From Amoebophrya sp. A120 (lineage: Eukaryota; Protista; Dinoflagellata), in the NCBI GenBank assembly GCA_905178155.1, contig CAJINV010000006.1, positions 3,568,169-3,632,168 on the forward strand: a DNA stretch of 64,000 bases, written 5' to 3'. Shown in pieces: positions 7,601 to 59,737 of the stretch (the stretch's first letter is position 1; each line of letters begins with the position of its first letter). The notes under the pieces were generated by a model. That model was not told the origin of the DNA, did not search any database, and worked only from the letters and a program-made list of their open reading frames with translations. Position numbers and translations under genes: made by a program.

Positions 7601-10600
7601 CAACCCGTCCTCCTCACCTTGATCTTTTAAAAAAGAGAAGACCTCCTGCGCGCGGTCATGAAGTTCTTCTTCCGTAAATACCCCGCCTTTCATTTCTTTT
7701 GCTTTGAAACAAATTTCCGGAATTTTTTCGCCGCGAGCATCAAGCTCATTCACGGGCAGGTGGTTTCCCGCTAAAGTGCGGCCCGGAGAAACCAGGCTTA
7801 GAAGGGGGCCGCCAGGACCGCGCGCCGGCTGCAGATGCTGCATAATAGTTTGACTGGCGGCAAAAAGATCCGACTTCGGGGTGTAGCGCGCGGGCGGTTG
7901 TGTGAGCGCCGGCTTTCTGGAAAGGCGACGGACCGAGTCAAGCCGTTTGCACTTTTCATCGCTTCGCGCCGGGCTTAAAAAGCCGGGGGTTGAGTCAAAA
8001 TTTACGGAGCACTGACCTTCGCGAAGAAGCTGATCGCTGCCCGGCGTTTCACATTCGGTTTTGCTATTCGGTCCGGATACAACAGGATTCCCCAACACCA
8101 CTACCATTGCCGCATTATTACGGCGGGCATCGGCGTCCATGTTGACAATGGACGCAAGATCAAAATCAAATTGCCTGGGTTGGTGAGGTTTCCACGCAGG
8201 CGAAGCCGTCTGGCCCTCGGGTTGATGGCCCTCTGCCTCGTTCTTCGTCTTTTGAATTATTTCAAAGCCCATGTTGCGGGGCTTTAGGTCGTTCAAAATA
8301 ATGCCTGCTGCAGCGAAGCGCTCCAGACAAAAGTGTAGCTGGCTGACGTAGTGGTCCGCATTTTTCCGGAGGTGCTCACTGTCTTGCTGCGTTGTGCCCT
8401 CAAATCCTGGCGCGAGAACAACTTTCACCCGCTCCACGAAAAAAAGAAAACGGAGCCGGCCCGGCTCAGCAAAATCTAGCTCGTCCTCGTCGGTGCGGGC
8501 AAAGACGTAAGACACAAAGACTCGCGGGACCCGGGCAACACAATCTTGCACGTCGGTGCGTCCGTGGCTCAGCAACAAGTTAAGCAAAATTTCTGTCCAC
8601 GCCACTTCTTTCATGCACTTCACGTCATTCTCTGCGCACTCAACCACCTTCAGCACTTGTTCGTACTCATCATCACCGAACACCTTATTATTCAGCAAAT
8701 TACTAGTGAGGGCACTGCCCGCTTCTTCCGCAGCCCTTTTTGTCGAGTGAAACTCCGTCCACACCTCGCCAACCGTTCCTTTCCCCCCGGGTTCGCCCTC
8801 GTAGAGTATGAGGCTCTCTTTGTCGCCTTCGTCTGCACTGCCCTCGGTGCGGCCCATGGCAGCAACATCAACATTGCTCCAAAGGGGACGTACGGTATGA
8901 TGATTATTTTCTTCAGCGCGGCTCCCGGCGTCCTCAGACAATGCTGGGTGCACAAATTTTCCGACCCATTCTCTCGCAGAGATTTCGCCATCGCATGGTG
9001 AGCACGATCCCGCTGTTGCAGCTCCTCTTTTCTGGGGGCGATTATGCATTGCAAATGCGTCTATGTCATGTCTGGAAGATTGCAAGATCTGTCTCGAAGG
9101 TTTCGCATGCCCAGAAGGTGAAGGTCTGGGCTGGAATGCGAGCTGGTGTAGCCGTACAAGCTTTGAGAAGGTCAATGCGCGATGCCTATTAATTCATTAT
9201 CCTGAACAAGAAGAAGGCAACATCATCGGGCGCCCAAAATTGGGCCGCTTTTTCATCATGTGCTCAAGCAATACAGATTCATTCGTGCGTCCTCGCCCAG
9301 ACCTAGAAGGACAGACTCGGGCTATTCCAGGCCCACAGAACATATTTGCAATGCACAGCCACCTCGAAGTTCTTGTTCATCTGCTGGTGAATGTAAATCG
9401 CACGAGAGATGATCATGAGCACCAACATGAGCGTTCTCGAGCAGGTAGCGCATAGTCTCGGGAGCAACCTGGCAAGCAATCCACAATTCTTGCGTAACGC
9501 GATATACCACCTGTGCGTGCCACAATTTGGTCTTAGCAACCGGGTCACTTTTTTCATCCTGGGATGATTTTGACGCGTGTTGAAGAAAGCTCAGCTCAGT
9601 ACTGTTTGCGAGAAGCCTGCTCGTCAAGTCCGAGTTGCTAAGCAGTTCAGGATGCTGCCCTCTAGCAGGTGCGTCTCTGACTTCTGAAATCGCAGTTGCA
9701 GTGGATGCAGGTGTGATGGAACCTCCAGGGCCACGCCGGCGGGCTTGTTCCGCTGTGGGAAAAAAGTTGTGGTAGCGTTGTTGTACAAAACTCATTTCCT
9801 GCTTAGTATCCCGACGAAAAAAAAACTGCTTACACTTACACACTTGCTGTAGCTTCAACAGCAGCACAACGCGTTTTATTTATATCCGCATGACACAGAA
9901 AACTTGCAGTGTTAGATATCATACACAAGAAATGGAAAAACACGTATGGCTACATCACGACTAGGCTCCTGAGTACAATGTAATCCGGCATGAGAGAACC
10001 TGATGTCTGTCTTGTAATATGGTCTGCAGCACTTCAAAAATGTGTAACGGTAACACTTTTTTCGTTGCATAATGCTCTGCGTTCTTGCGTGATTGTGATG
10101 CCTCGTTCCTCGAACTGTTCGTGACCGAAATCGGCAGCAGTGCGGGCGACAAAGCGTCAGAAGCAGTTTGAGCCCCGCCGGGAAGCTGTTTTTGCTGAGC
10201 CGGGGCGGACGGCTGTGAAAAAGAAAGGCTTGGCTGGACTTGGGTTTTCTCGGTACTAGTGGGAGAAGACGCTTTTTCTTTCAGCCGCCCGTCCGACTGG
10301 TGCCCGACTGTCGCATGATTCGCCACCAGCAGGGAGGTGGATGAGGACTCCTGATCTTCGTTCCCAGAAGTGCCCTGCTGCTGGTTATGTTCCATCCGTA
10401 CACGCGCAAACGAAGCGGGCTCCCACCGAGTGGTAGGATTTGTTGTTTGCTCTGGAGGATGAATGCTCGATGAGGCGCTCTGTTTAGCAGCTCTTGCTTC
10501 CTTTGGTCGCCCCATGATGTCGTCTACCGCAGCGGTAATTCGCGTTTCGTTGGAAGGCTTAGTATATGCACTGCAAACATGCCGGCGCCGGGGTCTGGGT

Positions 10601-11828
10601 AACAAGGCTTGTGATGCTAATACAAACTCGGAGTATCACGAGCAGGACGTCTCAAAATATTGCCAGCCCTCTGCCGAATGACATTATAGCTTTCGGGCTT
10701 CTTACGTGCTGCCTATGGATTCATCTGCGCTTCAAACTGCGTTTTTGTATGACAGAAAAACGGGCCTTTTGGGTACCAACGTGCATGACGGACTCGAAAG
10801 TCTGTCCCTGTGTCTGTCGTGCCGGCCGAGCACTACAAAAGCCTGTCCCTGCATTCTTCCAGACCCAGACACTCTTGATTTGATACTATCGTGGCGGTCG
10901 CGGCGGCGCCAGGAACGTCTTGTCCCTGTGGCTTTTTTATTTGGTCCTCTTCCTTTTTCGGGGTCGCGTAGCCCAACAAGGACCAGGGAAAAGAGAAGCC
11001 GGGTTCTGCCGGAAAAAGGTTCTTGCCAAGCCAGGAGTGGCTCGGCTGGTGGTCATCCACTTCTCCACCGGGAACCGCCGCATGCGTGCACGCCGGTGTT
11101 CCATAATTTTCGCTTCCTTCAGCACAGTCCGCGGCGGTCGCCACTGGCTGTTCCTCTGCCGCACGGCGTGCAGCTGTTCCGCGAAGATTGCCGTATTTGA
11201 CGCGATATGAAATGCAAAAATGTCTGGGTCTGGAAGAAAAATGCATGATTTGTCATGCATATTTCTCATGACCCATGATGCCTGTAATGCTCGACCTAGC
11301 ATCGCAGACTTTTAGAGGGCTTCCTGATGCACCCTCCGCATGACAAATGGCCCGTCCGTGTAGCAAAAACTGCACCCCTCTTGCTGGTCATGCAATACAA
11401 ATCTTTTTAGAGTCCAAAAACAGCACGACAAGTTGCAACGTTCCAGACCCAGACATTTTTACATTTGATACGCGACGCTTGGCTGCAGGCTGAGACGGAG
11501 CAACTACGGGCCCAGCTGTCGGTCCGCTTGTTTCCGGTCGGTTCTCGAGCGCGCTGGTGGGCACTCGTCCTTCTTTTTCCACCGCCCGACCCGACCCGTG
11601 AGAAAGTCCTCCATCCTCCCCTGGACCCCTGCCCAAATCGGGTTCCACGTCGTTCACCTCCCCTGCCCTCCTGACTCGCATTGCATGCGCGTTCTGCGGT
11701 GCTAAGCTGAAGTAGAAACACCCCGGCACGACCGCGGAGAGAGGGAACAGAAACCCGGGCAGAAGTAGGCGCCCAGATTTTGCTTTGTTCATTGTCTTCA
11801 TTTTGGATTTGCTGCTCAGCAAGCTCAT
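4645..11828 (-). CDS. Signal-peptide protein with long low-complexity N-terminus and tandem protein kinase + pseudokinase domains
   Basis: Approximate exons 11828-11471, 11205-10886, 10564-10072, 9806-9358, 9042-~6162, ~5034-4645; the first four joins are in frame after removing element+5 bp. Domain 1: GGKGTVGEVW, VLK, NDLKPRN, DFDLA, GFLSPA, KSDLFA. Domain 2: GGRGLNGKVW, VLK, NDVSPSS, NFDAA, KSDLFA. ORF 4645-5040 repeats the AQHIRLGL.PE.DS tail of domain 1. The last join is uncertain. Confidence 0.75.
5035..6161. mobile_element. ~1.1-kb GC-rich insertion or intron in the second kinase domain tail
   Basis: Separates segments that are contiguous in domain 1; poly-C run ~5050-5066; GCGCG direct repeats at 5030-5034 and 6162-6166 give the in-frame join TARAYFLDY; lacks TAT/ATA ends, boundaries uncertain. 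Confidence 0.45.
9043..9357. mobile_element. Introner family A, degenerate
   Basis: TATGCATTGCAAAT...ATTTGCAATGCACA; DR GCGAT/GCCAC; removal joins upstream exon to the kinase ORF in frame. Confidence 0.65.
9807..10071. mobile_element. Introner family H/F-like, degenerate
   Basis: TATCCCGACGAAAAAAAAACTGCTTACACTTACA...TGTAACGGTAACACTTTTTTCGTTGCATA; in-frame join; TAAG acceptor available. Confidence 0.6.
10565..10885. mobile_element. Introner family A, degenerate
   Basis: GGGTCTGGG / TTCCAGACCCAGACAC TIR cores; DR lost, but element+5 bp restores frame; a GT...TAAG splice is also in frame. Confidence 0.7.
11206..11470. mobile_element. Introner family A
   Basis: TATGAAATGCAAAAATGTCTGGGTCTGGAA...TTCCAGACCCAGACATTTTTACATTTGATA; perfect DR CGCGA; join KRRV-KYG. 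Confidence 0.92.
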
Positions 11829-13343: not shown

Positions 13344-15434
13344 CTATGCAGACGGCAACGAAATCGATTTCAAAATGGTCAATTCATCCTTCGTCAAAAC
13401 TAGTGTATGGTCCACACAATGACTGAAAAACTGCCCCAGAGCCGGCTTGAAGAAAAGCGTTTTGTTTTTCGTCGAATCTTCTTCCTCATTGTTGTCATGC
13501 TGAAAGAGATGTTGAGAGTTGTGCTGCACGTCGCCCTTCCCTCCTGTAGCTGCAATTATGTCCTGTTGGCCTTGTCTCTGCACAATAGCCTGTTTCATCA
13601 TTTTCGGTTCAATTTCGATTCTTCGTTTCTTCACCTCAGGTGACGGTGGTTTCTGGTGCTGGTGGGCAGGAGCAATCTGCTGTACTTCATCCTCTCCACG
13701 GCGCTGATCGCTTTCCACCACGAACGGATCCGCCCCAGAAGCAACCGGAGCGGGTTCGTTAAACTGTATTTTGTTGAGTGCAGCCACAGCCTGGCTCAGT
13801 ATTTGTTCCTCCTCCTCCTCCTCGTCGTCAAACAAATCGCTGTCAAACACCTGGTCCATCAAACTGTTCATCTTCGCCAATTCCACCGCCTCTTTTTCCT
13901 GCTTGTTCGTCGGCTTAAAACGGATAAAATCGGCTTTGCTTGTAGTCGTCCCGGAAGATTTGGCGCCGTCCACCAGTGATGCTGCTCCAGCATCACAAGT
14001 TCCTCCGGAAGATGATGAATCCATACTAGAAGTGGCACCCCCACCATGCATCCGATACCCCCGCCAGAGCGTATCGTCTCCATAGGGCAAGACAAAGCTC
14101 CTCGTTAGGTGGTTCACGAGGATATATCAACTGTAAAAGTGTCTGGGTCTGGAAGATTCTGACACTTGTCATGCACGTTTTGTATGAGCCATGATGTCTG
14201 TGATGCATACCCGCCTAGCAATGCAGATTTTTTGAGGGCTTCTTGATGCCTATTCCGCATGACAAACGCCTTCTCAGCCGCGTAGTACTGCATTCCCTTT
14301 GGTACTCATGCAATACAGATTTTTTTGGAATCCAAATGCAGCATCACAAGTTGCATTCTTCCAGGCCCACACATTTTTGCACTTGGTAGGATACTCGTTT
14401 TCGCAACTTGCCGGATTTTTTGCATGGTTTTGAAAATTTTTTTGTTCAGGTTCAAACGGTCGGCGATTTGTGATTGCTTGTTGTCGTGAAATATCCTGTG
14501 CAGAAGTATCGCACTCGTATTGCAATCATGCATTTACAATTTTTTTTCTTAAGGTGAATCCGCATTACAAATTTTATTTCTCATGCTGAGGAAATTTGTA
14601 ATGCATTTATACGACTACGATACTTTTGCACTGTATATGAAATCCGGTAGTTTTCGTTGGGTCGATTGCACTCCGGATCAGAAACGCGATGGAGTCGACG
14701 ATGAGAAGGTCAAATTTGTTCGATTTTATTGTATGATCGGTTTGATTTTTGACGCATTGTTCGGTAATTTTCCCGTCCAAGAATTTGGAAAATTCCTCTA
14801 GATCGTAGACTCGTTCGAATTCGAACTCAAAAGGCGCAGCGGAAATTGTGATGGCGCAACCTGTCGTCCTGCCGGGGAAGAATTCCGTCCCGGAGGCCGA
14901 AAGGTGTTCTTGGAAAACGTCCTGCAATTCCAATGGATATCTCCCCTCCGGATCCAACATCCTACCGCCCTGCGTGTCCACGTAGCAGATGCGGAAAGTG
15001 GGACGTCGACGAGGATTTCTGAGTTCTTTGTCATGCTGTTTTCCAAGAGCCAGAGCAGCGACCGAGTGGTCTTCAGCTTCACAGCGTGCCAGCAAGTTCC
15101 CGCGGACGACGTTGTGCAACAAAAACTCGGAGATTTTCACGTTCGGCAGCCCGACGAGTTGCCAAATACCGGGGGTGAAGCCTTGGTTGTCCAAGTAGGC
15201 GTCGATGGCCGGGACGCCGGAGGTTATGAAGGATAAGGAATCCGAGCCTTCCTTGATGTGCTGGAAGGGGGCGGAGTAAGAAGAAGAAGATGCGGAGGAC
15301 GGTTGTCCACCTTCTGAACCGTAATTGGTTTGCTGGTGCTGCGAAATCTTCTTGTCGTTCCACGTTTCATTGGAGCTTTCGCCGTCCGAAACATCTTCAG
15401 CAGCAGACGGAATGGAACTTAGAAAGGCGTCCAT
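13344..15434 (-). CDS. RAD51 paralog (RAD51D-like RecA fold) with degenerate Walker A
   Basis: Three exons split by two introners. Motifs ITSGVPAIDAYL..GF.PGI.QLVG, ICYVDT, Walker B LLIVDS, SILVNHLT (formed across a splice junction), KPALG.FFSHCVDHTLVL. Confidence 0.8.
14125..14388. mobile_element. Introner family A
   Basis: TIR GTGTCTGGGTCTGGAAG; perfect DR GGATA; join SIL-VNH. Confidence 0.92.
14492..14637. mobile_element. Introner family B
   Basis: TATCCTGTGCAGAAGTATCGCACTCGTAT...ATACGACTACGATACTTTTGCACTGTATA; perfect DR TGAAA. Confidence 0.92.
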
Positions 15435-15837: not shown

Positions 15838-18800
15838 TCAGAACGAAATCAACCGCAACAGCATCTTCCTGTCTTCTTCCTCCGTCGGCGGCGAATAAGC
15901 CTTCCTTTGCAACATCTTTCCCTTCGGCTTATTACCAGCAGTGGACGAAGAAATTGTCGATGACACAAGGTCGAAAATGCGGTTTGAGGTGCCTGCATTC
16001 GCAGTCGCGTTGGCCGACGTCGGAGTTGAGTTGTAGCTGGTTTCGTATTGCTGCTTTTTCTGCTGCTCGTCAGACACGGTTCCATCGGTTTGGTCTTTCG
16101 ATCCGCCATCAGTACCACCAGCACCACCTGCTCCCGTGGGGCTCTTGTTTCCGTTCGTCTTTTTGAAAATCCTTTCGTAAAAGGAAGAAATTTTCGCGGA
16201 AGAAACTGCAGCAGCGGTGGCGGAGGCTGCTGTGGAGATTTCTGCATTAGCATTATCTCCTTGAGCAGCTGCAGTAGCTCCACCAGTTGCAGCTGTTTTG
16301 CTGCCCTGCGCGCCGGTACTGTCCTCCAAAAGACTGTCGAGAGACACATTCACAATTCGCGAAGCCGGCTCGAACTTCAAGTCAGACACATTCAGCGCGG
16401 GGGCCGCGGGGGGAGGGGGTGGTGGAGTACTCCCTTTTGACGGTATTACTGCTGCATCCGTGCTCTTCGGCGATGTTGTAGTGGTCGCGTTCCCGTTTAG
16501 TAGAGCTTCGACGATATTACCAGCACTTCCACTTTTCTGTTCCGCGGACACTGCAGCGTCAACTACCGGAGCGCCGCCACTAGACCCAGGGGCAACACCA
16601 GCTGCTTCCTTGCTCGTGGTCTTGCTACCCGGACCAGGACCGATGCCACCCGGGACGAGGTTGTTCTGGACTCCACTAGCAGTGCCTGCTCCTGCAGTGG
16701 TAGTCGCAATAGTATTCGCCACGCCGGCAAGAAAACCGCCGACAGACTCGTAAACATCGGTGACTTTGAGTTTCGCTGCACCGGCCATTTTCTCCTCGCC
16801 CTCCGAACTCGCTGTGGTGCTGCTGGCAGCTGCGGGCGGAGGAGGCTTGTGCGGTGACAACATTTGGCTGAAGAGACCACCCGAGGAACCTGTGCTGCCA
16901 CTTTTAGGTGAAGATGTAGATGTAGATCCAGAACCACCAGAACCTCCAGGTCCTGTCAACCCAGGAGAACTCGTCAGCAAACTTTCACTCAGCACTTTCT
17001 GCTGGTGTTATCAAATGCAAAAGTGTCTGGGTCTGGAAGAGTGCGCGACTTGTCATGCTGCTTTTCCATGACCCATGAGGTCTGGAATGCAGGACCTAGC
17101 ATGAAAGATTCTGCGGAACATTTCTCATGCCTATCCTGCATGAGAAACTCCCTCCCGACTTGGTCAAAACTGGACGACTTTTGGAAATCATGCAACACAA
17201 ATTTTGCATGCTGCAGATTTAGCATGACAAGTTCCAATCTTCCAGACCCACACACTTTTACATTTGCTAGGTGCTTCCGCAACGCAATCCTGGTCAATTC
17301 CCCGGTCAACGGGTCGAAGATCTCCGCCGGCAGAGGGTCGCCCGCGATGAAAAATTCTGTTTCGGACGTGAGATACCCCTGGTCCAGACGCTCGCGCATG
17401 ACAGATTTAGTACTGAACTGGTGGGCTTTGTCAGAAGAATTCTGTTGTTGTGTGGAAGTTGAAGTCCCACCGCTGCTTTCCATATTGACGCACACGTACT
17501 CGATCACGTTATTTTCTTGTGTTGCTTCATCTTCCGCAATAGACCTTTCTCCAGTCGGGAAAAGGGTAGTTGAAATAAACCTGTGACCGAATCTCACCAC
17601 CTGTTGCTCTTCCCGACATTTTTTCAAAGCGGGAGCGATAGAAGGAAGCCGCTCATTAATTGGCACGTTCACATCGATGGGCAGGAGCTGAATTCTCCCA
17701 ATGTTCTGCATACTTGGCGGTGGAGGTGCTGGGGCTGGCACAGTGGTGGAACCTGTAGTTTTCTCTCCGTTTACAAAATCAAGCACTGTAGTCGCAACAC
17801 CAGAAGTTGCGGCTGCTACTCCAACTCCTCCGGTACTAGTTGTACCTGTTGTAGTGGCAATTGCTGTAGTACTGCCAACTATAACATCATCGTTACCACC
17901 ACCACTCCTCGCCGCAACCGTCGTGGAAACTGTAGTTATCACGTTCGTGCCCGTTTGCTTCAAAAAATTTCCGACGAAGGAGACGTTGGTGTTCATGGTT
18001 TCAAATTGTTTCAGCATCTTGTTCTTGATCGTCTTTTGCTGCTCCTCCTCCTGTTCTTTCAGCTTCTTCTCCTCAATAATCATCTCCGACCGCGCCCGCC
18101 ACTCCGCGTACGATTGAGGAACGTTTACGTTGGTGTCGGCTGTGGACGATGTGGTGTCTCCTGCTTGCTCTTTCATTTCGGATGCTGTACCTCCTGTGGC
18201 AGCCGAAAAAAGGTCGGCTTGAAGACCGACAGCACCGCCGGTGGCTACAGCCGGTGGCGCAGCTGTACTAGTCAACGGTTCTGTTTGCCTCTGCGCTGTT
18301 GACGGCACCGGCACTGCAGCCCCTACCACTGCCGCGAACCCTGACGTGACAGAAGTTTGGTCCAACAGCGAATCGAGTAACAGTGCCGTCGGACTTTCGG
18401 CTTCGAGAAGATCTTTATTACGACTACCCGCTGCAGGAGTAGTTGTACTTGTAGCTTGGTGTGGAGGTGGCGAAGTAGAGGTACCTCCTGTCGTTGTAGT
18501 GCTGGAAGTTGCTGCACCTTCGTCAGCACCAGCACCCGCAGCCAGCAAATTCAACAAGTCAATACTCGCCCGGCGGTTCTCTTCGGTAGATGTAGTGCTG
18601 GTTCCGGCGCTTGAAAAAGATTGGTTTTGCGCATTAGTTGGCTCATTCGACACTACAGCTCCTGCAGCCCCCGCTGTAGAATTCCCCGCACTCGAGACTT
18701 ATGAATTGCACAAGTGTCCTCTGGGTCTGGAAGATTCCAACTTGTCATGGTAAAAAATCTGAAGCATGCGAAAATCTGTGTTGCATGAGTGCCAAGAGCT

Positions 18801-19566
18801 GTACACTTTTGACCAAGTTAGTAGTTGGAGGGGAGTTTCTCATACCAGGAGAGGCATGATAGGGATCTCACAGAATGTCTGTCATGCTAAGTCCCGCATT
18901 CCAGACCTCATGGGTCATGGAAAATCTACATGACAAGTCTACACTTTTCCAGACCCAGACATTTTTACATTTGATAGGACTGGGGGAGTTGGGCTGTCGA
19001 AGAGAGACAGTAGGTCAACAGAGTTAGAAGAACCAGGTGCACCTCCACCTATCGTGGCCGGATTGCCGGGCGTATTGAGATAATTGACCGGAGATGAAGT
19101 TGTGGCCCCCTTAGAAGCACAAGCATCAATTTTCTCCCGAAACTGGGTATACAGCACCCCGAGCTCCGTCATCTCATCCAGGCCTTTTTTCCCTTTGTTG
19201 GCCCGGATCAAGTCTTCCAGCATCCCAACCCAAGCTTGCTCAAAGCCGGAGAATGACTCGTTATGAATTGCAAAAGCATCGTACTAGTATGAATTCTTGC
19301 ATTACAGATTTCCTCAGCATGATAGATGGAACGCTTGCATTACAGATTTCCTCAGCATGTAATGCATGACTGCGATAATTGCTACGAGTACGATACTTTT
19401 GCAATGCATACATGTTATTGTTTTGCAATTCCAAACCGTAATACACAAGCACTTTCTCGATTCGCAAGTCGGACCGGCACCAGGACCGCAGCTGGGGTAA
19501 ATCTGCGTTTTGGAGTTGCGTCTCATCGCAACAGAGAATTTCCGTGGAGAGCTCTTCAACGTCCAT
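15838..19566 (-). CDS. Hypothetical Ser/Thr/Gly/Ala-rich protein (4 exons)
   Basis: Start MDVEELSTEIL at 19566; in-frame joins across elements 19262-19410, 18700-18976 and 17009-17269; no domain recognised. Confidence 0.75.
17009..17269. mobile_element. Introner family A
   Basis: ~30-bp TIR; DR GGTGT/GGTGC; join RKH-QQKVL. Confidence 0.9.
18700..18976. mobile_element. Introner family A
   Basis: TIR CTGGGTCTGGAA; DR AGACT/GGACT; in-frame join. Confidence 0.88.
19262..19410. mobile_element. Introner family B
   Basis: TATGAATTGCAAAAGCATCGTACT...AGTACGATACTTTTGCAATGCATA; DR CTCGT/CATGT; in-frame join. Confidence 0.85.
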
Positions 19567-19697
19567 TTTTATTTGGGGCAGGAGGTAGGATTTTGGGTTT
19601 ATTTTGAGAAATGGAAAGAGATAGAGAAGCAGTTGATGTGTCAGAACTTCTTCTTGTTCAGTTGGACGATATGAAGATCGCGCCCGGAGGGCGATAT

Positions 19698-39181: not shown

Positions 39182-39497
39182 TATGGAAGCGTCAGGTTTG
39201 AAATCGTCAAAGTTGAAATAATTTGTAATGCATAAAATGCATGACCCGAGGCACGTATGTTGCAGAGCAGGGAAGTGAGGCCGATTGTAAGCCTGTTTCT
39301 TTGGGGTTACAGCTCGAGCTGCTAAAGTAGCATGAGAAAATCGCTCTTCTTTGCCTAAAAAGCATGACAAACTGGATTTTGGGACCAACGAAATTTGTCT
39401 TGCGCCGCTTGGAAACTGGGTTCCAACTCAACTGGCATCCATTTTATGCATGACAAATTATTTCAACTTTGTCGATTTCAACTCTGACACATCCATA
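39182..39497. mobile_element. Family E element outside any recognisable CDS
   Basis: Family E TIRs; perfect DR GCTTG; ~240 nt downstream of the TMBIM stop at 39735. Confidence 0.9.
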
Positions 39498-39734
39498 GCT
39501 TGTTGGTAAGCACGTGCTACTTCTACTTCTACTGGGAGCTAAAAATCTTGATTACAAACTACTTGAGGCAGTGGGGACATCAAACCAATTATTGCGTAGC
39601 GGTTGGTGGAAGGCGAGCAAGGCATATGTACAAATTCTAGCACTCGTTTATTTTTTGCACCTGTATTCTCGAGTATGTTTCATCGTCCGCTGTAGTCAGC
39701 GCTACCGCGTCGGTATAACTTTTCGGCCTTCATC

Positions 39735-48620: not shown

Positions 48621-49818
48621 GAATATTTTTTATCAGAAGTATATTTTTGGCGCGAAAAATATTCGCTTGATTAAAAATTGGCTTGTGTTCTTTTTTTTCT
48701 AAGCCTCCAACCACTCTTGCTCTTGAAAGAACACGATTTATTTTTACGATCATGCGAACGCGAAGGTCACAAGGCAACAAAACTACATGGATGAAAGGAG
48801 AACTACTTACGAGGCTCCCGAGAAAAGGAAAAGAACTTGATGGCGCATCACGAGCATGATGGCAAATAAGGTTCACTGTTTTTTTACTCGTGGAGGTCCT
48901 GCAAGATGAACATCACTGCGTCGACGTGCGACACACTCCTACTTTCCTCCTAGCAAAAAATAAGTAACCACATCTGGCAAAGAACAATCCACTACGTCCA
49001 CCTTCCTCCCGCTCCCGTCAAATGCACCGGTGGAATGTTCTATGAACGCGAAAAACCAGCTGCAAGATAAGGCCATTTTCGTTGTTCATGCAGCACATGG
49101 ACATGCATCCGTTCTTTATCATCTCGCTCTCGCATATAATTTAGACTTCGAGGTAAAGAAAAATAAGATCCAGATCGCGGTACACAGGAGTGCAGGAATG
49201 CAAGAAACCGCCTGTGGTCTTGTCCCAGATGAAGACGAAGATCGGCCATATAAACACAGAAGTTCTACTTATTTGTGTAGTACCCAAAACGGTACTAGGG
49301 GTAGAAGGGCTTGTGATTATGCCGCATCAGCACTTCCTGATCTTCATATTCGACCTCGATGAAGCTATCAACAAGGTTTTTCGCTTTCGTATTCCCATAG
49401 GCGGGGGTGGGGGCACGAAGTTTGGCGAATTTGGATCCTTGGAGACCCGTTTTCCGTGGAAATTCACGTTCTTCGCCTTGATCTTCTTGTAATACTGGGA
49501 AGATGCTGCAGTAGAAGTAGAATTCTTCTTCATCCCGCCCCTAGTGTTGTATCTCGGCGGAGTTCTTGACAGCTTGTACGGCGATAGCAAATCCCCGCCG
49601 TCGTCCGAGGAAAGGCTCGCCTGCGATAAGCGTCGCCGCCTGTCTGGGTCCCCCAGGCCTAACCCACGCATATCCCCATTTAAATCAAGTACCAACGTCT
49701 CGTTCCTGAAAGTAAATCTGTCATGTATGTTGTCCGCACGATCATCGTATCCTCTCATATTTGTGTGTTCTTGCATCACGACAAACTGTCTTTTGTAAGG
49801 GCGAAGACCGTGGTGATT

Positions 49819-52800
49819 TCATTCTGTAGGATACCGTATCGGCGAGATCGAGGCAGCGGCGCCGAGCCGGGTCGGGGGAAGTGGGAGAGGTAGGCGGGGA
49901 AGGGGAAGATTGTTGTGAGATATGAGAGTGCACAAAACCCCCTCAGCCTTATTTCTATGGCATGAACAGCAATACAGGCATCAGCAACAATGCAGGTTTT
50001 GCATGACAAATTTGCAGCAGAGTGTAGTGCTATTTGGGGTGCCATAACTTGTCATGCAAACAGTGCCAAGAGGGGGCAAGGTGTGGATTTGGTATTTTGC
50101 ATGACAAATGAGGGCGGGGAGTTGTGCACTCTCATATGAGGGTGAGATGCTGCAGTGGAGTTGATGTTACTGCTGCTTCGCTCACGACCGCCGCTTCTTC
50201 CTGTAATGCTATTCAGAAAACCGCCGCGCGAAGCGCTATAGGATCTGCTTTTGGAGGATAGTTTCCCGCGTCCGGGTAGCCCACCTGTCATGCCGCTTTG
50301 CTCGAGCAACACATGGTGGTACAGCTCCGGGTATCGCACGAAAAAGTGTTTTAAAACGGTTACAACTGTCGAGGAAATTTTGCATGCAGTAAGAACGCAT
50401 GAGAGAAGTTGTTTGTTCTTCCTGCATAGCATGCATAAAAAGAGAGAAGATCTGTCATGCGTGACTGCAGTTCCTCAAAACTGTTGATGCCTACACGACT
50501 CTATAATTTCTGGTTGATATCGGATCTTGCTCGTACAGAGTGGAATACAGCTATCCAAAAAAAAAAAGAGCCATCCCCCTGCCTTCCCCATCCATCTCTT
50601 GTATGACATGTAGCGAGATCTTGTGCGTGTTTTGCATGGCAAATTGGCTGAGAATGTTATTTTTTTTTGTGCATAACAGCTTCCGAATCGATCTTTCCCG
50701 TTTTGATGTCGTGCTCCGGTGGTCGTGCTTCGTCGATGTGTATTTGGCCTGCTGATCGTGGTTTGCAAAAACACCACCACCCCCGGTACTGACAATCGCC
50801 GCCTCGGGGTCGGGAACAAACAAATCCGGGTCAAATTTCTTCCGGAAACAGCAGTAGTGGAGCACCGTGTAAAACCCGGTCGCGAAACAGCTATGCATTG
50901 CAAAATTTTTATCGCACTGGTACTACTAATTGCAGTTATGCATGAAGGTTGTAGTTAGGATGAATCAGCATGACAAATTCCATCTGTAATGCGGGTCCAG
51001 CTACTTCTAATGCAATGTCTCCTTAAAAGTACGATGTTTTTGGTTTTGCATGGCATAACAGCAGATGATTAGCAACCCGATGAAAATCACAATTGGGTTC
51101 TTTTCCTTATGGGATTCTCAATTGTTACACTCTCAGCTGTTACATGAATTTGTGATGCAAAATGACCATGAGGCGCCAGACGATCAAGCTGCTTCGCATG
51201 ACGAATTATCGAAGGGCTAAACAGCATGTAGATCTGCGCGAAACTTGTGATGCAAGACTTGCCACCTTGCCCCTTTCCCTCTTGCTGTTTTTGCATCACA
51301 AATTCGTGTAACAGTTCAGAATGTAACATTTGAGAACTCCATATTCTTTCAAAATCTCCACTTCGTAGATGTTGACCAGCAGATCGTGGAAGGATTTATT
51401 GTCTAAAAATTAACCATCCCCATCCAATTTGTCATGCAATACATGTAGTAAAGTCAGTGTTTGTCATGCAAAAAGTGCATGGGGATGGTGAATTTTCAGG
51501 AGATAGGACTCCGGGTGGTCGAACGACAGCTTCTCGGTTTGCAATCCGTTTTTATCCTTCAACGCACCGTAGCTGTCGTCATCGCAAACGAATTCGTAAC
51601 GGGAGCCGTCTTTGCACCGCAACTTGGCCGAGGAACAGCCGTTGTTGCAGTAGGTTGTGAAGACTCGTTTTTCCTCCTCTCCGATCCGGAACATGGGCAG
51701 TATCCAGAGTAAGAGCCTTGCCGTAGAAGTACTACTTCTCGCGGGGCTGACCACATGTAGTATCATTGTTGCATCACAATAATTTCATGTACGCTAGTTG
51801 TACCGTCCTTTTCAGCACGACAAGTATCAAGTTCGTTTGCTTTCAAGAATTGACTGCTTCCCAGTTGTGAATTCAACTTTGTGAAGATGCACTTGGTGCA
51901 CCGCTTACGAGTCCGCCTCCCTCGTGTAGCTGTACGGCGGCAAGACATAAATTTCTCTTGCATAGGCGCGTAGCTGATCAGACAGGTGCTGCTCACCAGT
52001 TTCAGGTCCGAATCCGCCTGCTCCTCGGTGCAAGTGCAGCCGTTCTGCACACCGTTCAGGAGGGGTCGAAACAGTTCTCCAGATTTGCAGATGCAGTTCG
52101 AGTATCAACTGCAAAAATGTCTGGGTCTGGAAGAATGCATGTTTGTCATGCTTGTCTGGCATGACCCTTAATTAAATCTGTCATGCACATTACCCAAGAG
52201 CCCCATCTTTCTGTGATGCAGAAACGCAGTTTGTCATGCAGAATAAGCAACACCTAGAAGCTCAGAAACTTGTCATGCTGATCCAGCATTTGTGGCCTCA
52301 TCATGAGACGCCACCGAGCATCACAAGTTTCCAGACACAGACATTTTTACATTTGATATCGAGGGAAACACGTTGTTGTCCGCTGCGGTACATTGCGGAA
52401 TCGAGTGGGGCTCGTTGACAGCGCGGCTATCATGATTTTTTATGAAAATGCAGAACTCAACTCCCCCTGCCCTCATTCTATGTCATGCAAAGTTATCAAC
52501 TCAACGCATGGTCGTGCCGTGTTCTAGGTGGTGTAGCTTTGAAAGCGTGTTGACATCAAGCAGCTTCAGAAGCTGACGCTGCAATACAACACTGGTCCGC
52601 TTGTAGGTGTAGCTTGTTGAGCTTAATCGTGCGAAACGAAACCCTCCAGTGTACTTACTGGTGTTCGTTTGGTTTATTATCACCGCCCTTCAATACCAAA
52701 AGAGGGCATCAACAGGGAGCTCTTCTTGTGCACTTTCGTACTTTCGGAAGATGCTGCACTACTGCTGGCCGAGGAGGACGAGGCGGAGACTACAGCGACC

Positions 52801-52931
52801 GTGCTACAGGAAAACAAAACGCAAAGCAGCACTGTCCGCGAAGCGCGACGAGAAAGCATGGAGAAAGAACGACGTGAAAACAGCACCATCTTGTCCTCGT
52901 TACGAATCTTCATAGGGATCAAGATGATCAA
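49819..52931 (-). CDS. Cys-rich single-pass membrane protein; 5' exons and C-terminus uncertain
   Basis: Signal-like VLLCVLFSCSTVAVVSA; Cys-rich exons (NCICKSG, NGCTC, YCNNGC); TM IVIFIGLLIICCFATGFYTVLHYCC formed across an introner; seven TIR elements; may extend to ORF 49327-49779. Confidence 0.6.
49921..50136. mobile_element. Introner family C
   Basis: TATGAGAGTGCACAA...TTGTGCACTCTCATA; DR TGAGA/TGAGG. Confidence 0.9.
50332..50519. mobile_element. Introner family H, right end degenerate
   Basis: TATCGCACGAAAAAGTGTTT left end; DR CCGGG/TCGGA; join QDP-ELY in frame. Confidence 0.65.
50552..50675. mobile_element. Introner family G-like, degenerate
   Basis: TATCCAAAAAAAAAAAGAGCCATCCCC...TTTTTTTTTGTGCATA; perfect DR ACAGC. 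Confidence 0.78.
50892..51057. mobile_element. Introner family B
   Basis: TATGCATTGCAAAA...TTTTGCATGGCATA; perfect DR ACAGC. Confidence 0.87.
51108..51343. mobile_element. Introner family D
   Basis: Family D TIRs; DR TTCCT/TTCTT. Confidence 0.9.
51397..51505. mobile_element. Introner family G (109 bp)
   Basis: ACCATCCCCAT / ATGGGGATGGT arms; DR GGATT/GGACT; join PES-FHD. Confidence 0.8.
52103..52358. mobile_element. Introner family A
   Basis: Family A TIRs; perfect DR TCGAG. Confidence 0.92.
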
Positions 52932-53753: not shown

Positions 53754-55224
53754 TCACTCCGCTGCCGACACCACGGCTTCATCCGAGTTGTACGAGTATT
53801 CCGAAGAGGATCCAGAGAGCACGGTGTAGGCGTCCGCGTGGCCCTATCCAGGAAAAAAAACTGTGTAAGTGTAACTTTGTAGGAAGAGCAGCATCACAAA
53901 TTCGCTTTGCATTACAGGGAAAACCTGTCATGCGTAGCTAGTACGTGGAAACGCGTATGATAGTAGCCTATGACGCACTTCCAGCATGACAAGTATAATT
54001 GTTTTGCATTTTCTGCATCACACATTTACACTTACACAGTTTTTTTCTTGCTTAGGCCCTCGCCCCGCCTTCTGCGCTGGTCCCTCGAACGATCTGCGGA
54101 CCGGGGGCTGGAGTTTGCTAGTATCGTAGGGAACAAAAATGAACTGCCCCTACTTGTACTCGCCCTGCTTGCTCATTATGTAAAAGTAGTTCTTTTTTTT
54201 CTCATGCAAAAACCCCATCTACGTTACTACGAACTGCAGCTCGAAAAGCAGAAACTGCATCATGATCATCTTCTTGCTTAATATCCTTGTGCTTAAATAC
54301 GGAGTATTGTGATGGGCATAGGGAAAAACAAGCAACGGGGCAGCAGCTGTCCTCAGACTTTGGATACTTTTCGAAGAATGAAATGTGGACGATGTCGCAG
54401 ACGAAGAGCTGCTGCTTTTCTTCTTCTTGTATCACACAGAAAGAAGCAGGTAGGTCAGATCATTTGTAACGCAAAAATACACAAAAAAATCAAATCTGTA
54501 TGGCATATCCTAAACAGCAGGCTATGAGACCGCCCATGACAGACGTTTCTGTGTATTTACTTTTGCATGAGAAAAAATATCTATGACCTGCCTGCTTTTT
54601 TCTGTGGAATATCTTGCAGCACGGGCACATTTGCGCGCAACACCCACCCTTGTCCCGACGTGAAGATTCGTGCGCTGAGCTGCCAGGGTATGCAGTGCAA
54701 AATTCGTTTCATCTTCTCTTCCCGGACAGGCACAGCACGTGCACAAAATGCATGACAAAATTGACTAGCAACTTCCAAGAAGAGGTGGACACTTCTCTTG
54801 CCAAATACAATCAATAGTACGAAGTAGTACGCCCACCACCAGAACATTTGAACTGTCAAGCAAGAGTACGTACTACGGTAGTTTGTTATGCGTGTCCGTG
54901 AATTATGAAATTTCATCCTTTGGATACAGCGCCAATCCCGCGGTTTGTTTCCCGGCAGCAGCACACGGCGCACATGCAGTCCTTGAAGCAACGGCAGGTG
55001 CCACAGAAGCAGCAGCAGATGATCCAGAGAAGAAGCAGCGCCAGCACAACAGCGCCCGCAATCACGCCCCAGGTGATCCACTTTTTCCGCGTGTCATCAT
55101 CTCCGTCCTGGAGGAAGTTGGAAGGTGGCTGAACTACAACTGCTGCTGCAATTTGTTCCTCGACAGTGGTCATCTTCTGCAGCTCGGAAGCTGCAGAGAT
55201 CTCCATCTCGACGTGGGTATGCAT
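53754..55224 (-). CDS. Small single-pass membrane protein with Cys-rich juxtamembrane segment; downstream exons uncertain
   Basis: WITWGVIAGAVVLALLLLWIICCCFCGTCRCFKDCMCAVCCC; putative terminal exons flank the element at 53845-54054. Confidence 0.45.
53845..54054. mobile_element. Introner family H
   Basis: TATCCAGGAAAAAAAACTGTGTAAGTGTAA...TTACACTTACACAGTTTTTTTCTTGCTTA; perfect DR GGCCC. Confidence 0.88.
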
Positions 55225-57293: not shown

Positions 57294-59737
57294 TCAGTTC
57301 GCATTCTTGGACTTGCGCAGGTATTGCGCCACTGACATCACCGTTTCTTCGTCGCTCGCGTTCGAGTCTTCTTCGTCCGACCCCGTTTCCGAACTGCCCA
57401 CAGCCTGTCCCATCACCACGGGCGCGCCACTTTCCCCCTCCGGGGAGGCGGGGATTTGTTCTTTCCCCGCTTTGTTCTTTCCCTTGTTCATTTTTCCACC
57501 CTTCTTGCCCTTGCCCTTTTTTCCGCCCTTCGCGGACATGGAGTGTTTGGACAGCGGCTTCGTATGAAATGCAAATATGTCTGGGTCTGGAAGGTTCCGA
57601 GATTTGTCATGCAGTTTTTCCAAGCTCCGCCAACAAGTCTGAAATGCAGGGCCCAGCATCACAGGTTCTGCAGCTCCTTAGTGATGCCTGTTCCGCATGA
57701 GAAGTGCCCTCTCAGTTTGGCCAGAAATAGGCACCTTTTGGTGCAAGCCATGCAAGACAGATTTTTGCAGGATGCGCAACACGCATCACAAGTTCGCAGC
57801 CTTCCAGACCCAGGCATATTTGCAATGCATACTTCGTTTCATCGTCGTAAAGGCCCGCGATCGGCGATTCTTCGTCCTATGCAGTGCAAAAGTATCGCAC
57901 TAACGTAAATGCATTACAGATTTCCTGAGCATGAGAAATAAAATTTGTAATGCTGATTTACCTTAAGAAAAAGATTTGTAATGCATGATCGCAATACAAC
58001 GAATACGATACTTTTCCCCTCCATACGTCCCCTTCATCGACCAGCTGATTTTCCACGTCCGCCTGGCCTTCGCCGTAGCGGGAGCGGCCCGAAAACCGCG
58101 CCGGGCCGGTCACCAGCCCGCCCTGCCAGTAGTCACCTCCGCCACCATACCCGCCATCATTGTAGCCGCCGCCACCGTAACCGCCGCCGCCTCCGTAGCC
58201 ACCGTAGTCATCGTAGCCGCCACCGCCGCCGTAGGCTCCGCCGCCGCCCCAGTACCAGTCGTCTTCGCCCCACTCGTCCCAGTCCCCATCGCCACCGGCA
58301 GCTGCGTATGCATTGCAAAAGTATCGCACTCGATGTACTGATCGCATTTATGCATTACAAATTTCTATATGTCAAGATGAATCCGCATGACAAACAAGGC
58401 CCACCCGAGCGTGGGGACAGGGTCCCCACGCTGGGGCCTTGTGCTCGTCCCTAGTGGCGCTAGTGGGGGAAGGGTGTTCGGCATCGGGGCGGACAGCGTC
58501 CGCCCCTCGCCTCACACCAGGCGCGCGCGTAGTGGCTTAGTGCGCGAAACGCTAGTGGGGGAAGGGTGTTCGGCTTCGGGACGGACAGCGTCCGCCCCTC
58601 GCCTCACACCAGGCGCGCGCGTAGTGGATCAGTGCGCGAAGCGCTAGTGGAAAAAGGGCGAATTAGGCGCCCTGCATTTTGCAAGAAAAAAGAAAAATAG
58701 AAGCAAAGTAAATATCTCTGTGTGGCTTCTGCAAAAAAGTTCTCTAACATTGAAGCGCAACGCCTTTCCGATTCCACAGAGCAAAGTAAGCAGCTGTCTC
58801 CTGGCCGTGCATTGCAGAGATAGCCGCTTACTTATTTTTCCATGGCACCGCAAAGGCTTCTTTGCTTATGGAGGCAGTTTGTGTTACGGCATTAATCTTT
58901 TTCATTTTTTGCGTCGCGTTTCTTTTTTTTTGGCGCTTTTAATTTATTTTTCACGTCAAGAGCGGCATTTGGCGTGAAAAATAAATATTTGCGCCCAGGC
59001 GCTGGCCTCGCCTTTGCTTTATCCTCTCGCTTCGCCTGTCGCGGCCAACTGTCCAGGTCACCTGTCAAGGTCACCTGTCAAGGTCACCTGTCAAGGTCGC
59101 CTGTCAATGTCACCTGTCGCGGTTACCTGCCAAGGTCACCTGTCGCCGGGGGGTAGGCGGGACCAGAACCCGGAAGTCAAGCAATGTAAATATTAATCTC
59201 ATTTCTCATGCTGAGGAAATTATTTGTCATGCGCATTATACTAGATCTAGAACTAGTACGCTACTTTTGCAGTGCATACTGCGTCCTTGTCCTTGTCCTT
59301 CTTTTTGCAACAACAGCAAAACTTCTTCCCACACCAGGTACGCGTATGACAGTGCACAAGAGCTCCCACTCCCCTCCTTTGTATTGCATGAACAGCATTA
59401 CAAGCACCAGTGCATGTGAACCCTGTGCATGACAAGTTCATGCGCCGAGTGTAGAAGTACTGTTTGGATTTCCGGAATTTGTCATGCATGCGGAGGTGCC
59501 ACAAGGTAGCAACTGTATTTGGGTTTTTGCATGACAAATGAGGGGGATGGGGTGCTCCTGTTGTGCACTCTCATAACGCGCCCGGCCGATGCACGACGCG
59601 CCGCGGCAGCAACAACACATCGCGCCCAGAATGAGGGCGAACACGGCGACGCCACCGAGCACATACCACACAATGGGATCACCGGTCGTGTCCGTTACTG
59701 CCTGCGTCACGGCCTCCGCGCCGCGTAAACGGACCAT
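57294..59737 (-). CDS. Single-pass membrane protein with Cys clusters, Gly/Tyr-rich region and Lys-rich tail (5 exons)
   Basis: TM IVWYVLGGVAVFALILGAMCCCC; in-frame joins over four TIR elements, all with perfect DRs; GGGY repeats; KGGKKGKGKK tail. Confidence 0.82.
57563..57831. mobile_element. Introner family A
   Basis: Family A TIRs; perfect DR CTTCG. Confidence 0.92.
57878..58025. mobile_element. Introner family B
   Basis: Family B TIRs; perfect DR CGTCC. Confidence 0.9.
58459..58650. repeat. 92-bp tandem duplication within introner cargo
   Basis: GCTAGTGG recurs at 58459, 58551 and 58643 with near-identical intervening sequence. Confidence 0.85.
59041..59144. repeat. 13-bp minisatellite (AAGGTCACCTGTC) x8 within introner cargo
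   Basis: Eight consecutive units, several identical. Confidence 0.9.
59345..59575. mobile_element. Introner family C
   Basis: TATGACAGTGCACAA...TTGTGCACTCTCATA; perfect DR ACGCG. Confidence 0.92.

Follow-up and report, generated by a model that had tools for sequence, protein, structure and literature searches.

Inverted-repeat elements in the genes of the window

The window, a stretch of 64,000 nt analysed as a whole, carries TAT...ATA inverted-repeat elements that are almost certainly the published introners of Amoebophrya sp. A120. Our main reading (probability about 0.6) is that these introners are excised with a fixed cut, as element plus 5 nt, by a spliceosome freed from its need for G at +1 and for AG at the 3' end.

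The element system is confirmed as real. We curated 52 elements of 109–972 bp (median 236), 51 from scans and one, 49041-49391, that entered the set through a skip in an RNA-like contig (Table 1; elements are named by their first position). The flanking direct repeat matches at 5/5 positions in 31 elements, 4/5 in 14, 3/5 in five, 2/5 in one and 1/5 in one. Two further degenerate elements (49671-49833 and 51701-51964) coincide with gaps in the annotated protein P0004 and are kept outside the 52. As an unbiased control, we scanned for exact TAT/ATA ends, TIRs matching at ≥13/18 positions and a length ≤330 bp, with no direct repeat required. The window gave 44 pairs, with a perfect 5-mer in 26 and a 4/5 match in 9; 10 dinucleotide shuffles under the same criteria gave 0–5 pairs each and no perfect 5-mer, in agreement with the 5-bp duplication proposed in an earlier, sequence-only reading of this DNA. 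Identity between the two flanks reaches 0.89 at k = 5, against 0.23–0.30 at k = 2–4 and 6–10; the figure is partly selected because most elements were chosen with a repeat filter. At k = 6 the repeat is perfect in 0/51 elements.

Ungapped TIRs measure 13–58 bp in 45/51 elements and 3–6 bp in the other 6, a wider range than the 15–37 bp first reported. At 70% coverage, the 51 elements form 7 multi-copy families (12, 11, 5, 4, 3, 2 and 2 members) and 12 singletons, and 44/51 have a near full-length relative (best 96%) in loci L001-L135 of another assembly. A logo of 314 perfect copies, from loci retrieved by one family's TIR pattern, has A at 0.84–0.93 in positions 11–14. Unrelated families share the motif GCATNACA, spaced at 31–33 bp. 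The elements are non-coding, have TA..TA termini, are inserted in both orientations (56:55 and 16:15), and would shift the frame in 34/52 cases if kept in the transcript. Interruption of exons had been claimed for nearly all of them, and it does not hold for every element: 40479 sits within a 317-nt GT-AG intron (40458-40774), and 39182 is downstream of the TMBIM stop codon.

Table 1. Elements (families F1–F7, singletons, degenerate copies) and host genes in the window. Repeat: matching positions of the 5-bp direct repeat. Start and end are those of the sense strand.
Feature	Position	Strand	Repeat	Remarks
singleton	9043..9357		3/5	start TGT
degenerate	10565..10885		1/5	boundaries uncertain
F1	11206..11470		5/5	
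F1	14125..14388		5/5	start TAC; within RecA/RAD51-like ORF
F2	14492..14637		5/5	
host gene = P0003 (1008 aa)	15838..19566	-		after removing 3 elements; start approximate
F1	17009..17269		4/5	start TAG; junction agrees with P0003
F1	18700..18976		4/5	cut ≤4 from P0003
F2	19262..19410		3/5	cut ≥4 from P0003
F2	22351..22503		4/5	
F1	22579..22831		5/5	
F4	22888..23126		5/5	
F2	25908..26863		5/5	lengthened to 956 bp by nested Helitron-like insert (~810 bp, about 25938-26747)
F3	26907..27127		5/5	
F1	27538..27790		5/5	
host gene, homologue of P0005	32463..38564	-		14 elements; ends approximate
singleton in window	32531..32842		5/5	96% copy in L043
F6	32902..33209		5/5	TIR 56 bp
F7	33433..33594		5/5	
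F2	33638..33794		5/5	
F4	33853..34093		5/5	
F2	34453..34629		5/5	
F1	34677..34938		5/5	
F2	35262..35415		4/5	Tyr in homologue P0005 fits cut ≤4
singleton	35500..35667		4/5	P0005 collinear across junction
F1	35734..35985		5/5	P0005 collinear
F3	36229..36464		5/5	P0005 collinear
F2	36507..36656		5/5	P0005 collinear
F4	36786..37021		5/5	P0005 collinear
F5	37934..38042		5/5	109 bp; P0005 collinear
F6	39182..39497		5/5	3' of TMBIM stop; RNA-like contig piece stops at element edge
host gene TMBIM/Bax1-I = P0001 (268 aa)	39738..42020	-		after removing 5 elements and one GT-AG intron
F1	39804..40087		5/5	interrupts FAAL/TLYMD of TMBIM P0001
singleton	40210..40418		4/5	cut ≤4 from P0001
singleton	40479..40632		4/5	nested in GT-AG intron 40458-40774
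F3	40873..41099		3/5	cut ≥3 from P0001
F2	41307..41455		4/5	within P0001 gene
F1	41494..41761		4/5	end ATG; cut ≥3 from RNA-like contig and P0001
F7	43381..43547		4/5	RNA-like contig omits 43376-43547 (167+5); DNA contig contiguous
host gene = P0004 (497 aa)	49000..52910	-		11 elements; ends approximate
degenerate	49041..49391		2/5	start TAC; RNA-like skip 356 = 351+5, cut ≥4
degenerate, outside the 52	49671..49833		3/5	P0004 gap 168 nt (163+5)
F3	49921..50136		4/5	in P0004
singleton	50332..50519		3/5	cut ≤4 from P0004
F5	50552..50675		5/5	in P0004
singleton	50892..51057		5/5	interrupts hydrophobic stretch of P0004
F4	51108..51343		4/5	in P0004
F5	51397..51505		4/5	in P0004
degenerate, outside the 52	51701..51964		3/5	P0004 gap 269 nt (264+5)
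F1	52103..52358		5/5	in P0004
singleton	52441..52740		3/5	start TAC; cut 1-4 from P0004
singleton	53845..54054		5/5	start TAA
singleton	54430..54611		5/5	
singleton	54689..54926		4/5	
F1	57563..57831		5/5	
F2	57878..58025		5/5	
F2	58307..59278		5/5	972 bp; nested unrelated insert ~800 bp
F3	59345..59575		5/5	

Elements are removed together with 5 nt

Window exons match three annotated proteins (P0001, P0003, P0004) at 100% identity, and all three come from Amoebophrya sp. A120 records, which places the proposed non-canonical introns in that organism; A120 annotated proteins are described as gene models built from transcripts (PMC7789003). Removing each element with one repeat, as the sequence-only reading had suggested, reproduces P0001 (268/268 aa) and P0003 (1008/1008 aa) exactly and recovers 8/8 junction peptides of P0004. 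The homologue P0005 is collinear with its window gene over 7 more junctions, and in a protein-level view the A25 orthologue P0002 is gapless and collinear at the 5 TMBIM sites. Removal restores FAALTLYMD in the TMBIM gene, whose label agrees with Pfam Bax1-I. SILVNH is likewise rebuilt, but the RAD51 label attached to it found no confirmation, both exon pieces being without a Pfam hit.

Contigs of run X3, taken as RNA by guess and carrying no junction counts, skip 172 = 167+5 nt at 43381 and 356 = 351+5 nt at 49041. Contigs of the DNA-like run X1 span both sites gap-free, with the elements present and no differences. One X3 contig (49639-49864, depth 10) reads through a degenerate element unspliced. 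For the TMBIM contig, element+5 is the sole solution that fits length and open frame among 166 intron candidates; +0 to +4 and +6 to +10 give no open-frame solution. Altogether 23 junctions were checked by protein and 2 by RNA-like contig, and 27/52 elements lack a protein or two-flank RNA-contig match. Even elements whose ungapped TIRs are weak or whose ends are degenerate (43381, 49041, 50332) are exactly removed. Removal of element plus 5 nt at the RNA level is hardly in doubt.

The cut and the bases around it

Imperfect repeats allow the cut to be placed within the target. It lies at ≥4 for 49041 (RNA-like contig) and 19262 (P0003), ≥3 for 41494 (RNA-like contig, P0001) and 40873, ≥2 for 43381 (RNA-like contig), and ≤4 for 40210, 18700, 50332, 52441 (annotated proteins) and 35262 (homologue); every ≤4 limit derives from annotated proteins or the homologue, the RNA contigs supplying lower bounds alone. 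The imperfect repeats are compatible with one cut alone, N|TAT...ATA-NNNN|, and we consider it probable that the cut is fixed after target base 4, i.e. 1 base 5' of TAT and 4 bases 3' of ATA.

Removal of element+5 leaves GT-AG boundaries in 0/52 elements, and 35/52 have no in-frame GT-AG pair within 12 nt (17/52 have one). Of the window elements, 52/52 have T at +2, 16/52 have G at +1 and 3/52 end in AG. AG is not enriched at the 3' end of copies in loci L001-L135 either (22/363), in line with the earlier proposal that AG is not needed, and 6/363 of these copies have GT-AG at the inferred cut. The donors of the window's GT-AG introns are GTATAA, GTACTA, GTATAA, GTATTA and GTATAG; A at -7 is not the rule in these introns.

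We compared the two ends in 363 sense-oriented copies from loci L001-L135 (repeat ≥4/5), their strand being inferred by a codon model that alone is right at 34/42 window sites. At terminal position 1 the 5' end deviates in 0 copies and the 3' end in 8; at position 3 the corresponding counts are 7 and 0, so intron T+2 and A-7 are invariant while their mirror positions vary (Fisher P-value 0.00016). The total is 15 deviations, and adding copies with 3/5 repeats (n = 379) weakens the asymmetry to 3:12 and 9:3 (Fisher P-value 0.007). In the window, the 5':3' deviations are 0:1 (position 1) and 5:0 (position 3). Since +2 and -7 are invariant and their mirrors vary, this sequence pattern points to selection at the RNA level.

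What removes the elements

We propose that a spliceosome with relaxed needs would recognise U+2 and, as its branch site, the A at -7. The latter may act as the branch nucleophile and set the 3' junction by distance, the element ending A-U-A-NNNN| on this side, and the terminal stem may draw the intron ends together. Because both element ends read TAT inward, either insertion orientation yields a 5' end N|UAU(C/G), which would resemble the window's ordinary GUAU/GUAC donors. We somewhat favour spliceosomal chemistry. The assignment of A-7 as the branch point is tentative and somewhat less likely than not. The bases preceding it (TTG, TGC, AGG, TCC) would pair poorly with U2. In its favour, Giardia introns have a fused branch/3' motif at a similar distance (PMC10711314). 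For A120, the available text of PMC7789003 reports most spliceosome proteins and U2, U4, U5 and U6, but not U1. The predicted terminal stem, once formed, would bury both splice signals, a point against the spliceosomal reading.

The same elements and cut could instead be handled by structure-guided, non-spliceosomal removal, by an endonuclease and ligase or a second Euglena-style machinery that would be guided by the terminal stem and cut 1 and 4 bases beyond it. Such a stem is predicted for 44/50 elements (z = –2.9 for 43381), the lack of a reported U1 in A120 fits such a route, and Euglena provides a precedent in its spacer rule N3CDG...CH'GN5-6|R, with introns released as circles (available parts of PMC12501133, PMC11282704). 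However, the invariant +2 and -7 do not pair with each other, and the bases opposite them in the stem change so that the pair breaks (TAC, TAA, TAG; ATT, ATC). The weak-TIR and degenerate elements are exactly removed all the same, and NTAT agrees with local GT-AG donors. We judge this route fairly unlikely.

Removal through conventional GT-AG sites close to where the elements end is suggested by the in-frame pairs in 17/52 elements, by the 6/363 copies and by inverted and direct repeats in 15% of A120 canonical introns (available text of PMC7789003). However, it conflicts with the 35/52 elements lacking such a pair and with the absence of GT-AG at the removal supported by 23 protein- and 2 RNA-checked junctions. 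At these junctions it is refuted, and we consider it highly improbable.

Template-switch artefacts classically arise at hairpins with short flanking direct repeats, and our data derive from cDNA. The skips could thus be reverse-transcriptase switches in genes that are truly interrupted. Against this, retention would shift the frame in 34/52 elements, the skip at 49041 is exact despite a 2/5 repeat, the proteins restored by removal align collinearly with orthologues and strand-specific conservation requires RNA-level selection; we give this explanation very little credence. Excision from DNA in some life stage is just as implausible: ciliate IESs are TA-bounded and removed from DNA, and TA ends with precise loss of one repeat recall such programmed excision, but X1 keeps the elements in unbroken contigs, and DNA excision offers no source of asymmetry linked to the sense strand and would not retain four upstream-copy bases plus one downstream-copy base.

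Insertion of the elements

The elements may be inserted by an IS3EU/Ginger-like DDE transposase with TA..TA ends and a 5-bp staggered cut, acting in trans by binding the shared GCATNACA motifs three helical turns apart. The shared ends and the 31–33-bp motif grammar are compatible with one mobilising system, short of proof, and we see an even chance that one transposase serves all families. The single transposase of the sequence-only reading was not borne out: we found no transposase in 30 window ORFs and 2 annotated proteins or in 92 ORFs ≥280 aa from other loci, and no DDE transposase in 8 long TAT..ATA intervals, where the ORF scanned was that of L069 alone. In the available text of Farhat et al., the absence of a transposase is argued to rule out general mobilisation by one (PMC7789003).

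Comparison with known systems

The available text of Farhat 2021 (PMC7789003) describes A120 introners with inverted repeats starting TAT + 7 nt + AAA, direct repeats of 3–5 nt (a 5-bp example stands in the Fig. S19 legend), a mean length of about 240 nt, and 29,850 copies in 1,954 families; the non-canonical introns are RNA-validated and the mechanism is left open. The window elements share the organism, the TAT-start TIR with an A-run after 7 nt, a repeat within the 3–5-nt range, the organisation in families, and departure from RNA (X3 being RNA by guess) with non-canonical ends. That text gives variable repeat lengths and variable or unknown borders, whereas we find a uniform 5 bp and a fixed cut; neither the +2/-7 asymmetry nor the 31–33-bp motif appears in it.

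In the portions of Gozashti 2025 at hand (PMC12130899), most A120 families carry the label 'TIR DNA, unknown', and their lengths and TIRs match those of the window families. Family 38 (about 808 bp), which resembles our elements in its description, is assigned to Ginger, with '5-bp TSD, TA/TA termini' and LTR-integrase-like homology; fam1 starts are GT 341, CT 258, AT 198 and TT 95 of 1322. TSD calls range from 2 to 6 across families, unlike the uniform 5 bp of the window, and the A120 rows of supplementary file 8 that were covered (56/58) show no common cut rule.

The element ends resemble, in sequence, those of IS3EU/GingerRoot, which have TA..TA termini, TIRs and integrase-like DDE enzymes. 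However, duplications there are usually 6 bp, and the available text of PMC10045372 does not describe them as introns. Euglena nonconventional introns likewise lack GT-AG and have paired ends, TSD-like repeats and fixed stem-junction spacers, but differ in a CAG/CTG core at +4 to +6, a purine exon start and no U+2 rule (available parts of PMC12501133, PMC11282704); window ends read N-TAT...ATA-N4, without the Euglena signature. MITE-derived introns of Fritillaria borealis (Henriet 2019) also combine TIR and TSD with non-canonical ends and are reportedly removed by an adapted U2 spliceosome; their ends are mainly AG-AC and AG-AT, whereas +1, -2 and -1 are free in the window (PMC11282704, as available). 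The U2 signature (GT or GC at +1/+2, AG at the 3' end) is absent from the window elements.

Overall, the sequence-only interpretation is partly supported. As it had suspected, the phenomenon is known: in the parts available, it has been published together with its TAT start and 5-bp repeat (PMC7789003; PMC12130899 supplement row 580). Relative to those parts, the fixed cut, the +2/-7 asymmetry and the shared 31–33-bp motif are additions; the removal rule is new in detail and directly testable.

Element census and identity

Scans of the window for paired TAT/ATA ends returned 51 elements; a 52nd (49041-49391) came to light through an RNA-like contig. The 5-bp flanking repeat is perfect in 31 of the 52, matches at 4/5 positions in 14, at 3/5 in five and at fewer in two. 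With no repeat filter, 26 of 44 inverted TAT..ATA pairs of up to 330 bp carried a perfect 5-mer, while ten dinucleotide shuffles gave 0-5 pairs each and no perfect 5-mer; flank identity was seen at k = 5 only. The TAT...ATA elements with 5-bp repeats described in the sequence-only reading are thus real. The statement that nearly all of them interrupt exons has exceptions: element 40479 lies inside an ordinary intron and 39182 past a stop codon. The 51 scanned elements form seven multi-copy families and 12 singletons; two degenerate elements, beyond the 52, coincide with gaps in an annotated protein. Every host gene tested is on the minus strand, and families use both orientations (56:55 and 16:15). 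No AG|G target preference was found at element sites and no Rfam match in the window. Neighbouring elements can share a 5-bp target (ACAGC at 50552 and 50892; one 5-mer twice in L035, a locus of another assembly), a hint of short-range hopping or of duplication.

Searches with the exons retrieved proteins of 100% identity to the window, labelled Amoebophrya sp. A120 by their sources. The accessible text of Farhat et al. 2021 (PMC7789003) describes A120 introners, 1,954 families with 29,850 copies, that have 3-5-nt direct repeats and inverted repeats beginning TAT, followed by seven looser bases and an A-run; a legend terms introner sites variable. The window elements fit this description exactly. 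In the available parts of Gozashti et al. 2025 (PMC12130899), which include 56 of the 58 A120 rows of supplementary file 8, A120 families are mostly classed as TIR DNA elements, and family 38 is entered as Ginger-like, '5-bp TSD, TA/TA termini'. Given the A120 identity and these two descriptions, the use of such elements as introns is already known, as the sequence-only reading had suspected, and the elements themselves are not new. The accessible portion of PMC12005148 reports mostly GT-AG introns in a Karlodinium-infecting strain and in strain AT5. According to the same parts of PMC7789003, neither a transposase nor U1 was found in A120; there and in a 2024 review, as far as their available text goes, the removal of non-GT-AG introns, which in Amoebophrya number in the tens of thousands, is described as an open question. 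The fixed register, the asymmetry at intron positions +2 and -7 and the phased motif reported here are absent from the literature text searched; figures 3 and S19-S25 of PMC7789003 and the figures of PMC12130899 may show the register.

Removal of the element plus five bases

Deletion of each element with one flanking repeat had been proposed to rebuild coding sequence, and the protein comparisons bear this out. Applied to the TMBIM/Bax1-I gene, the rule reproduces the annotated protein P0001 at 268/268 residues, and the orthologue of a second Amoebophrya strain, A25, aligns to the model without gaps at the five element sites. The same rule yields two other annotated A120 proteins, P0003 at 1008/1008 residues and P0004 at 8/8 junction peptides, and seven junctions collinear with P0005, a homologue of the 14-element host gene. 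Altogether 23 junctions are supported by protein records and two more by RNA-like contigs on both flanks, the other 27 of 52 lying outside these comparisons; template-switch artefacts are an unlikely source of such junctions. Removal of the element plus five bases leaves a GT-AG pair in 0/52 cases, in line with the earlier observation that usable pairs are mostly lacking, and ordinary GT-AG sites near the element ends are an unlikely alternative route. Retention would shift the frame at 34/52 elements.

Contigs of one run, X3, whose RNA nature is a guess, skip 43376-43547 (167+5) and 49035-49390 (351+5); contigs of a DNA-like run (X1) are unbroken across both sites, and excision of the elements from DNA is unlikely. 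The X3 TMBIM contig has an open frame only if five elements are each lost with five extra bases and a 317-nt GT-AG intron is spliced out as well. As for retention in transcripts, which the earlier reading had put up for checking, the two X3 skips speak against it, and the counter-case is one X3 contig (depth 10) that crosses a degenerate element unspliced. Two raw-read runs, X9 and X10, place just 6 and 2 reads here and so speak neither for nor against removal. An open frame on both sides barely discriminates between removal lengths (46-50/51 junctions at any length); only the minus-strand count does so, with 43 for +5 and 42 for +8 versus 21-30 for +3, +4, +6 and +7. The table of contig joints was left out as evidence, being filled by X1 repeat-to-repeat joints.

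A perfect repeat lets the junction slide; imperfect repeats pin the cut within the target (bases 1-5, sense strand). The cut comes no earlier than base 4 at 49041 (RNA contig) and 19262 (P0003), than base 3 at 41494 and 40873, and than base 2 at 43381. It lies at or before base 4 at 40210, 18700, 50332 and 52441 (annotated proteins) and, by homology, at 35262, these upper limits (40210 and 35262 included) being gene models from transcript alignments or homology and not RNA reads. The only constant solution is a cut after base 4, which makes the intron N-TAT...ATA-NNNN. In Table S4 of PMC7789003, as far as accessible, every dominant A120 end class begins NT (NT-xx). This fits the cut but is not counted as proof, since NT classes could also arise from ambiguous strands and from the way an aligner places the junction in the repeat.

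Strand asymmetry at +2 and -7

A pattern search found the same families at 135 loci, 594 kb in total, of a single other assembly (full-length identity 96% at best, median 84%). Copies were located by subterminal similarity, with terminal bases left free, and oriented by a codon model that was locally right at 34/42 window sites; agreement with the locus total was required. This gave 449 copies, of which 363 were kept, their strand being unambiguous and their repeat matching at 4/5 positions or more. Because the two ends are mirror images, equal drift is expected. We found that the first T deviates 0 times at the 5' end and 8 times at its 3' mirror, while for the third base there are 7 deviations at the 5' end and none at its mirror, the A at intron -7 (n = 363, Fisher p 0.00016). 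The corresponding window counts are 0:1 and 5:0. With 3/5 repeats admitted, the loci give 3:12 and 9:3 (n = 379, p 0.007), and dropping the local-agreement filter 4:12 and 10:3 (n = 417, p 0.009). Intron positions +1, -2 and -1 are free, with AG in 22/363. The asymmetry held per position only and not per trinucleotide: a more variable 5' trinucleotide, seen in the window (6:1), did not replicate (8:12, n = 310). Strand mutation bias would shift both positions in the same direction, which makes RNA-level selection the likely source. Since +2 and -7 are not pairing partners of each other, they are probably read as bases rather than as a pair.

Shared motif and mobiliser

The 12.6 kb of elements contain 137 occurrences of the motif GCAT(G/C/T)ACA, versus 25 in the remaining 51 kb (shuffling predicts 7 overall); the motif is present in 48/51 window elements and 310/314 others. 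This sharing speaks for one common trans factor. Same-orientation copies are spaced 31-33 bp in 6/7 families and in singletons, and such a spacing of three helical turns suggests a DNA-binding protein. Many ordinary introns also carry the motif, so either these introns represent old elements or the motif serves some other purpose; several GT-AG introns beginning GTAT may be decayed elements. The non-element copies of GCATNACA are strand-biased (17 versus 8), the sense strand reading TGTNATGC. No association of the internal motif with Amoebophrya was found in the literature searched or the PNAS 2025 supplements.

No transposase was found in 30 window ORFs or 92 long ORFs of the loci. The sequence-only reading had called for a search for long ORF-bearing copies with the same ends: among eight TAT..ATA intervals above 400 bp with a perfect repeat, no autonomous copy was seen. 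Two of the eight were resolved. L008 contains the Helitron-like insert; in L069 (476-2934) an insert of 2.2 kb, carrying a 415-aa ORF without Pfam match, interrupts an F1-type element whose repeat is perfect. TA..TA ends are common to the window elements and IS3EU/GingerRoot, whose duplications, in the accessible text of PMC10045372, are usually 6 bp. The elements work like IS3EU/GingerRoot but are not filed as members, because their duplication is 5 bp.

Further features of the window and their positions
Feature	Position	Observation
Insert in F2 element 25908	25938-26747	~810-bp repeat, 78% identical to L008 776-1573, itself nested in another element; no duplication; minus strand, between A and T; ends GC hairpin + CTGG; presumably Helitron-like; 25908 ends still perfect, and removal would involve a 961-nt intron
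Insert in F2 element 58307	~58394-59199	~800 bp, unrelated to the first; internal tandem repeats
Hairpin	31394-31616	Near-perfect, 97-bp arms (96%), 29-nt loop; not of the TAT..ATA kind
GC-rich degenerate repeats	45700-48500	GCGCGCGC with A/T runs; no Pfam match in three ORFs scanned
Gap in X3 depth	45740-48407	Depth absent
Long minus-strand ORF	6119-9879	1146 codons once element 9043 is removed; ~1.6-kb internal duplication; no Pfam match; possibly mobile-element derived
Tandem TMBIM/Bax1-I paralogues	39700-44600	Two; intron and element positions differ
Near-identical repeat, ~75 bp	3050-3125, 13350-13430	Near 3' ends of two different genes
ORF without elements	29442-30737	ESCRT-II (Vps25-type) Pfam match
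GCATNACA outside curated elements	1109, 1662, 35074, 36085, 37515, 37579, 38207, 43850, 43883, 44672	Mostly ordinary introns

Removal mechanism

For its first step a spliceosome requires two invariant bases, U at +2 and A close to the 3' end. GT-AG introns of the window begin GTAT or GTAC, so N-TAT can be read as the donor used locally, its first base being free. In Giardia the branch A lies at -8, close to A-7 of the A120 elements. The Giardia branch motif, CT[A/G]ACACACAG, directly abuts the 3' site (PMC10711314, accessible text). These four features, U+2, the A near the 3' end, the GTAT/GTAC donors and the Giardia spacing, lead us to favour, with some reserve, removal by a relaxed major spliceosome; that A-7 is the branch point, with a measured 3' site, is a more tentative proposal. 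Such splicing would be the extreme of the mode reported for Fritillaria (review PMC11282704, as available).

The main rival is a non-spliceosomal route that reads the stem, as in Euglena (PMC12501133, available parts). Terminal stems are predicted in 44/50 elements and would bury both the +2 and the -7 signals, and the bases preceding A-7 pair poorly with standard U2.

Overall, we suggest, at a probability of roughly one in three for the whole, that A120 would have a U1-less spliceosome, reading a transposon end as a universal splice code. The 5' signal would be N|UAU, the branch adenosine would be fixed seven bases before the junction, and the 3' site would be picked by distance, leaving G+1 and AG dispensable. 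Symmetric ends and the 5-bp duplication would then make each insertion a scarless intron in either orientation and at any target, and a single trans-acting factor on GCATNACA sites, three helical turns apart, would mobilise all families. With the fixed register and the two strand-specific invariant bases, how the elements are removed becomes accessible to direct tests. If this reading is right, splicing in a eukaryote would dispense with the two end bases regarded as central to its second step, and this would account for the ability of a transposon to invade exons without target preference.
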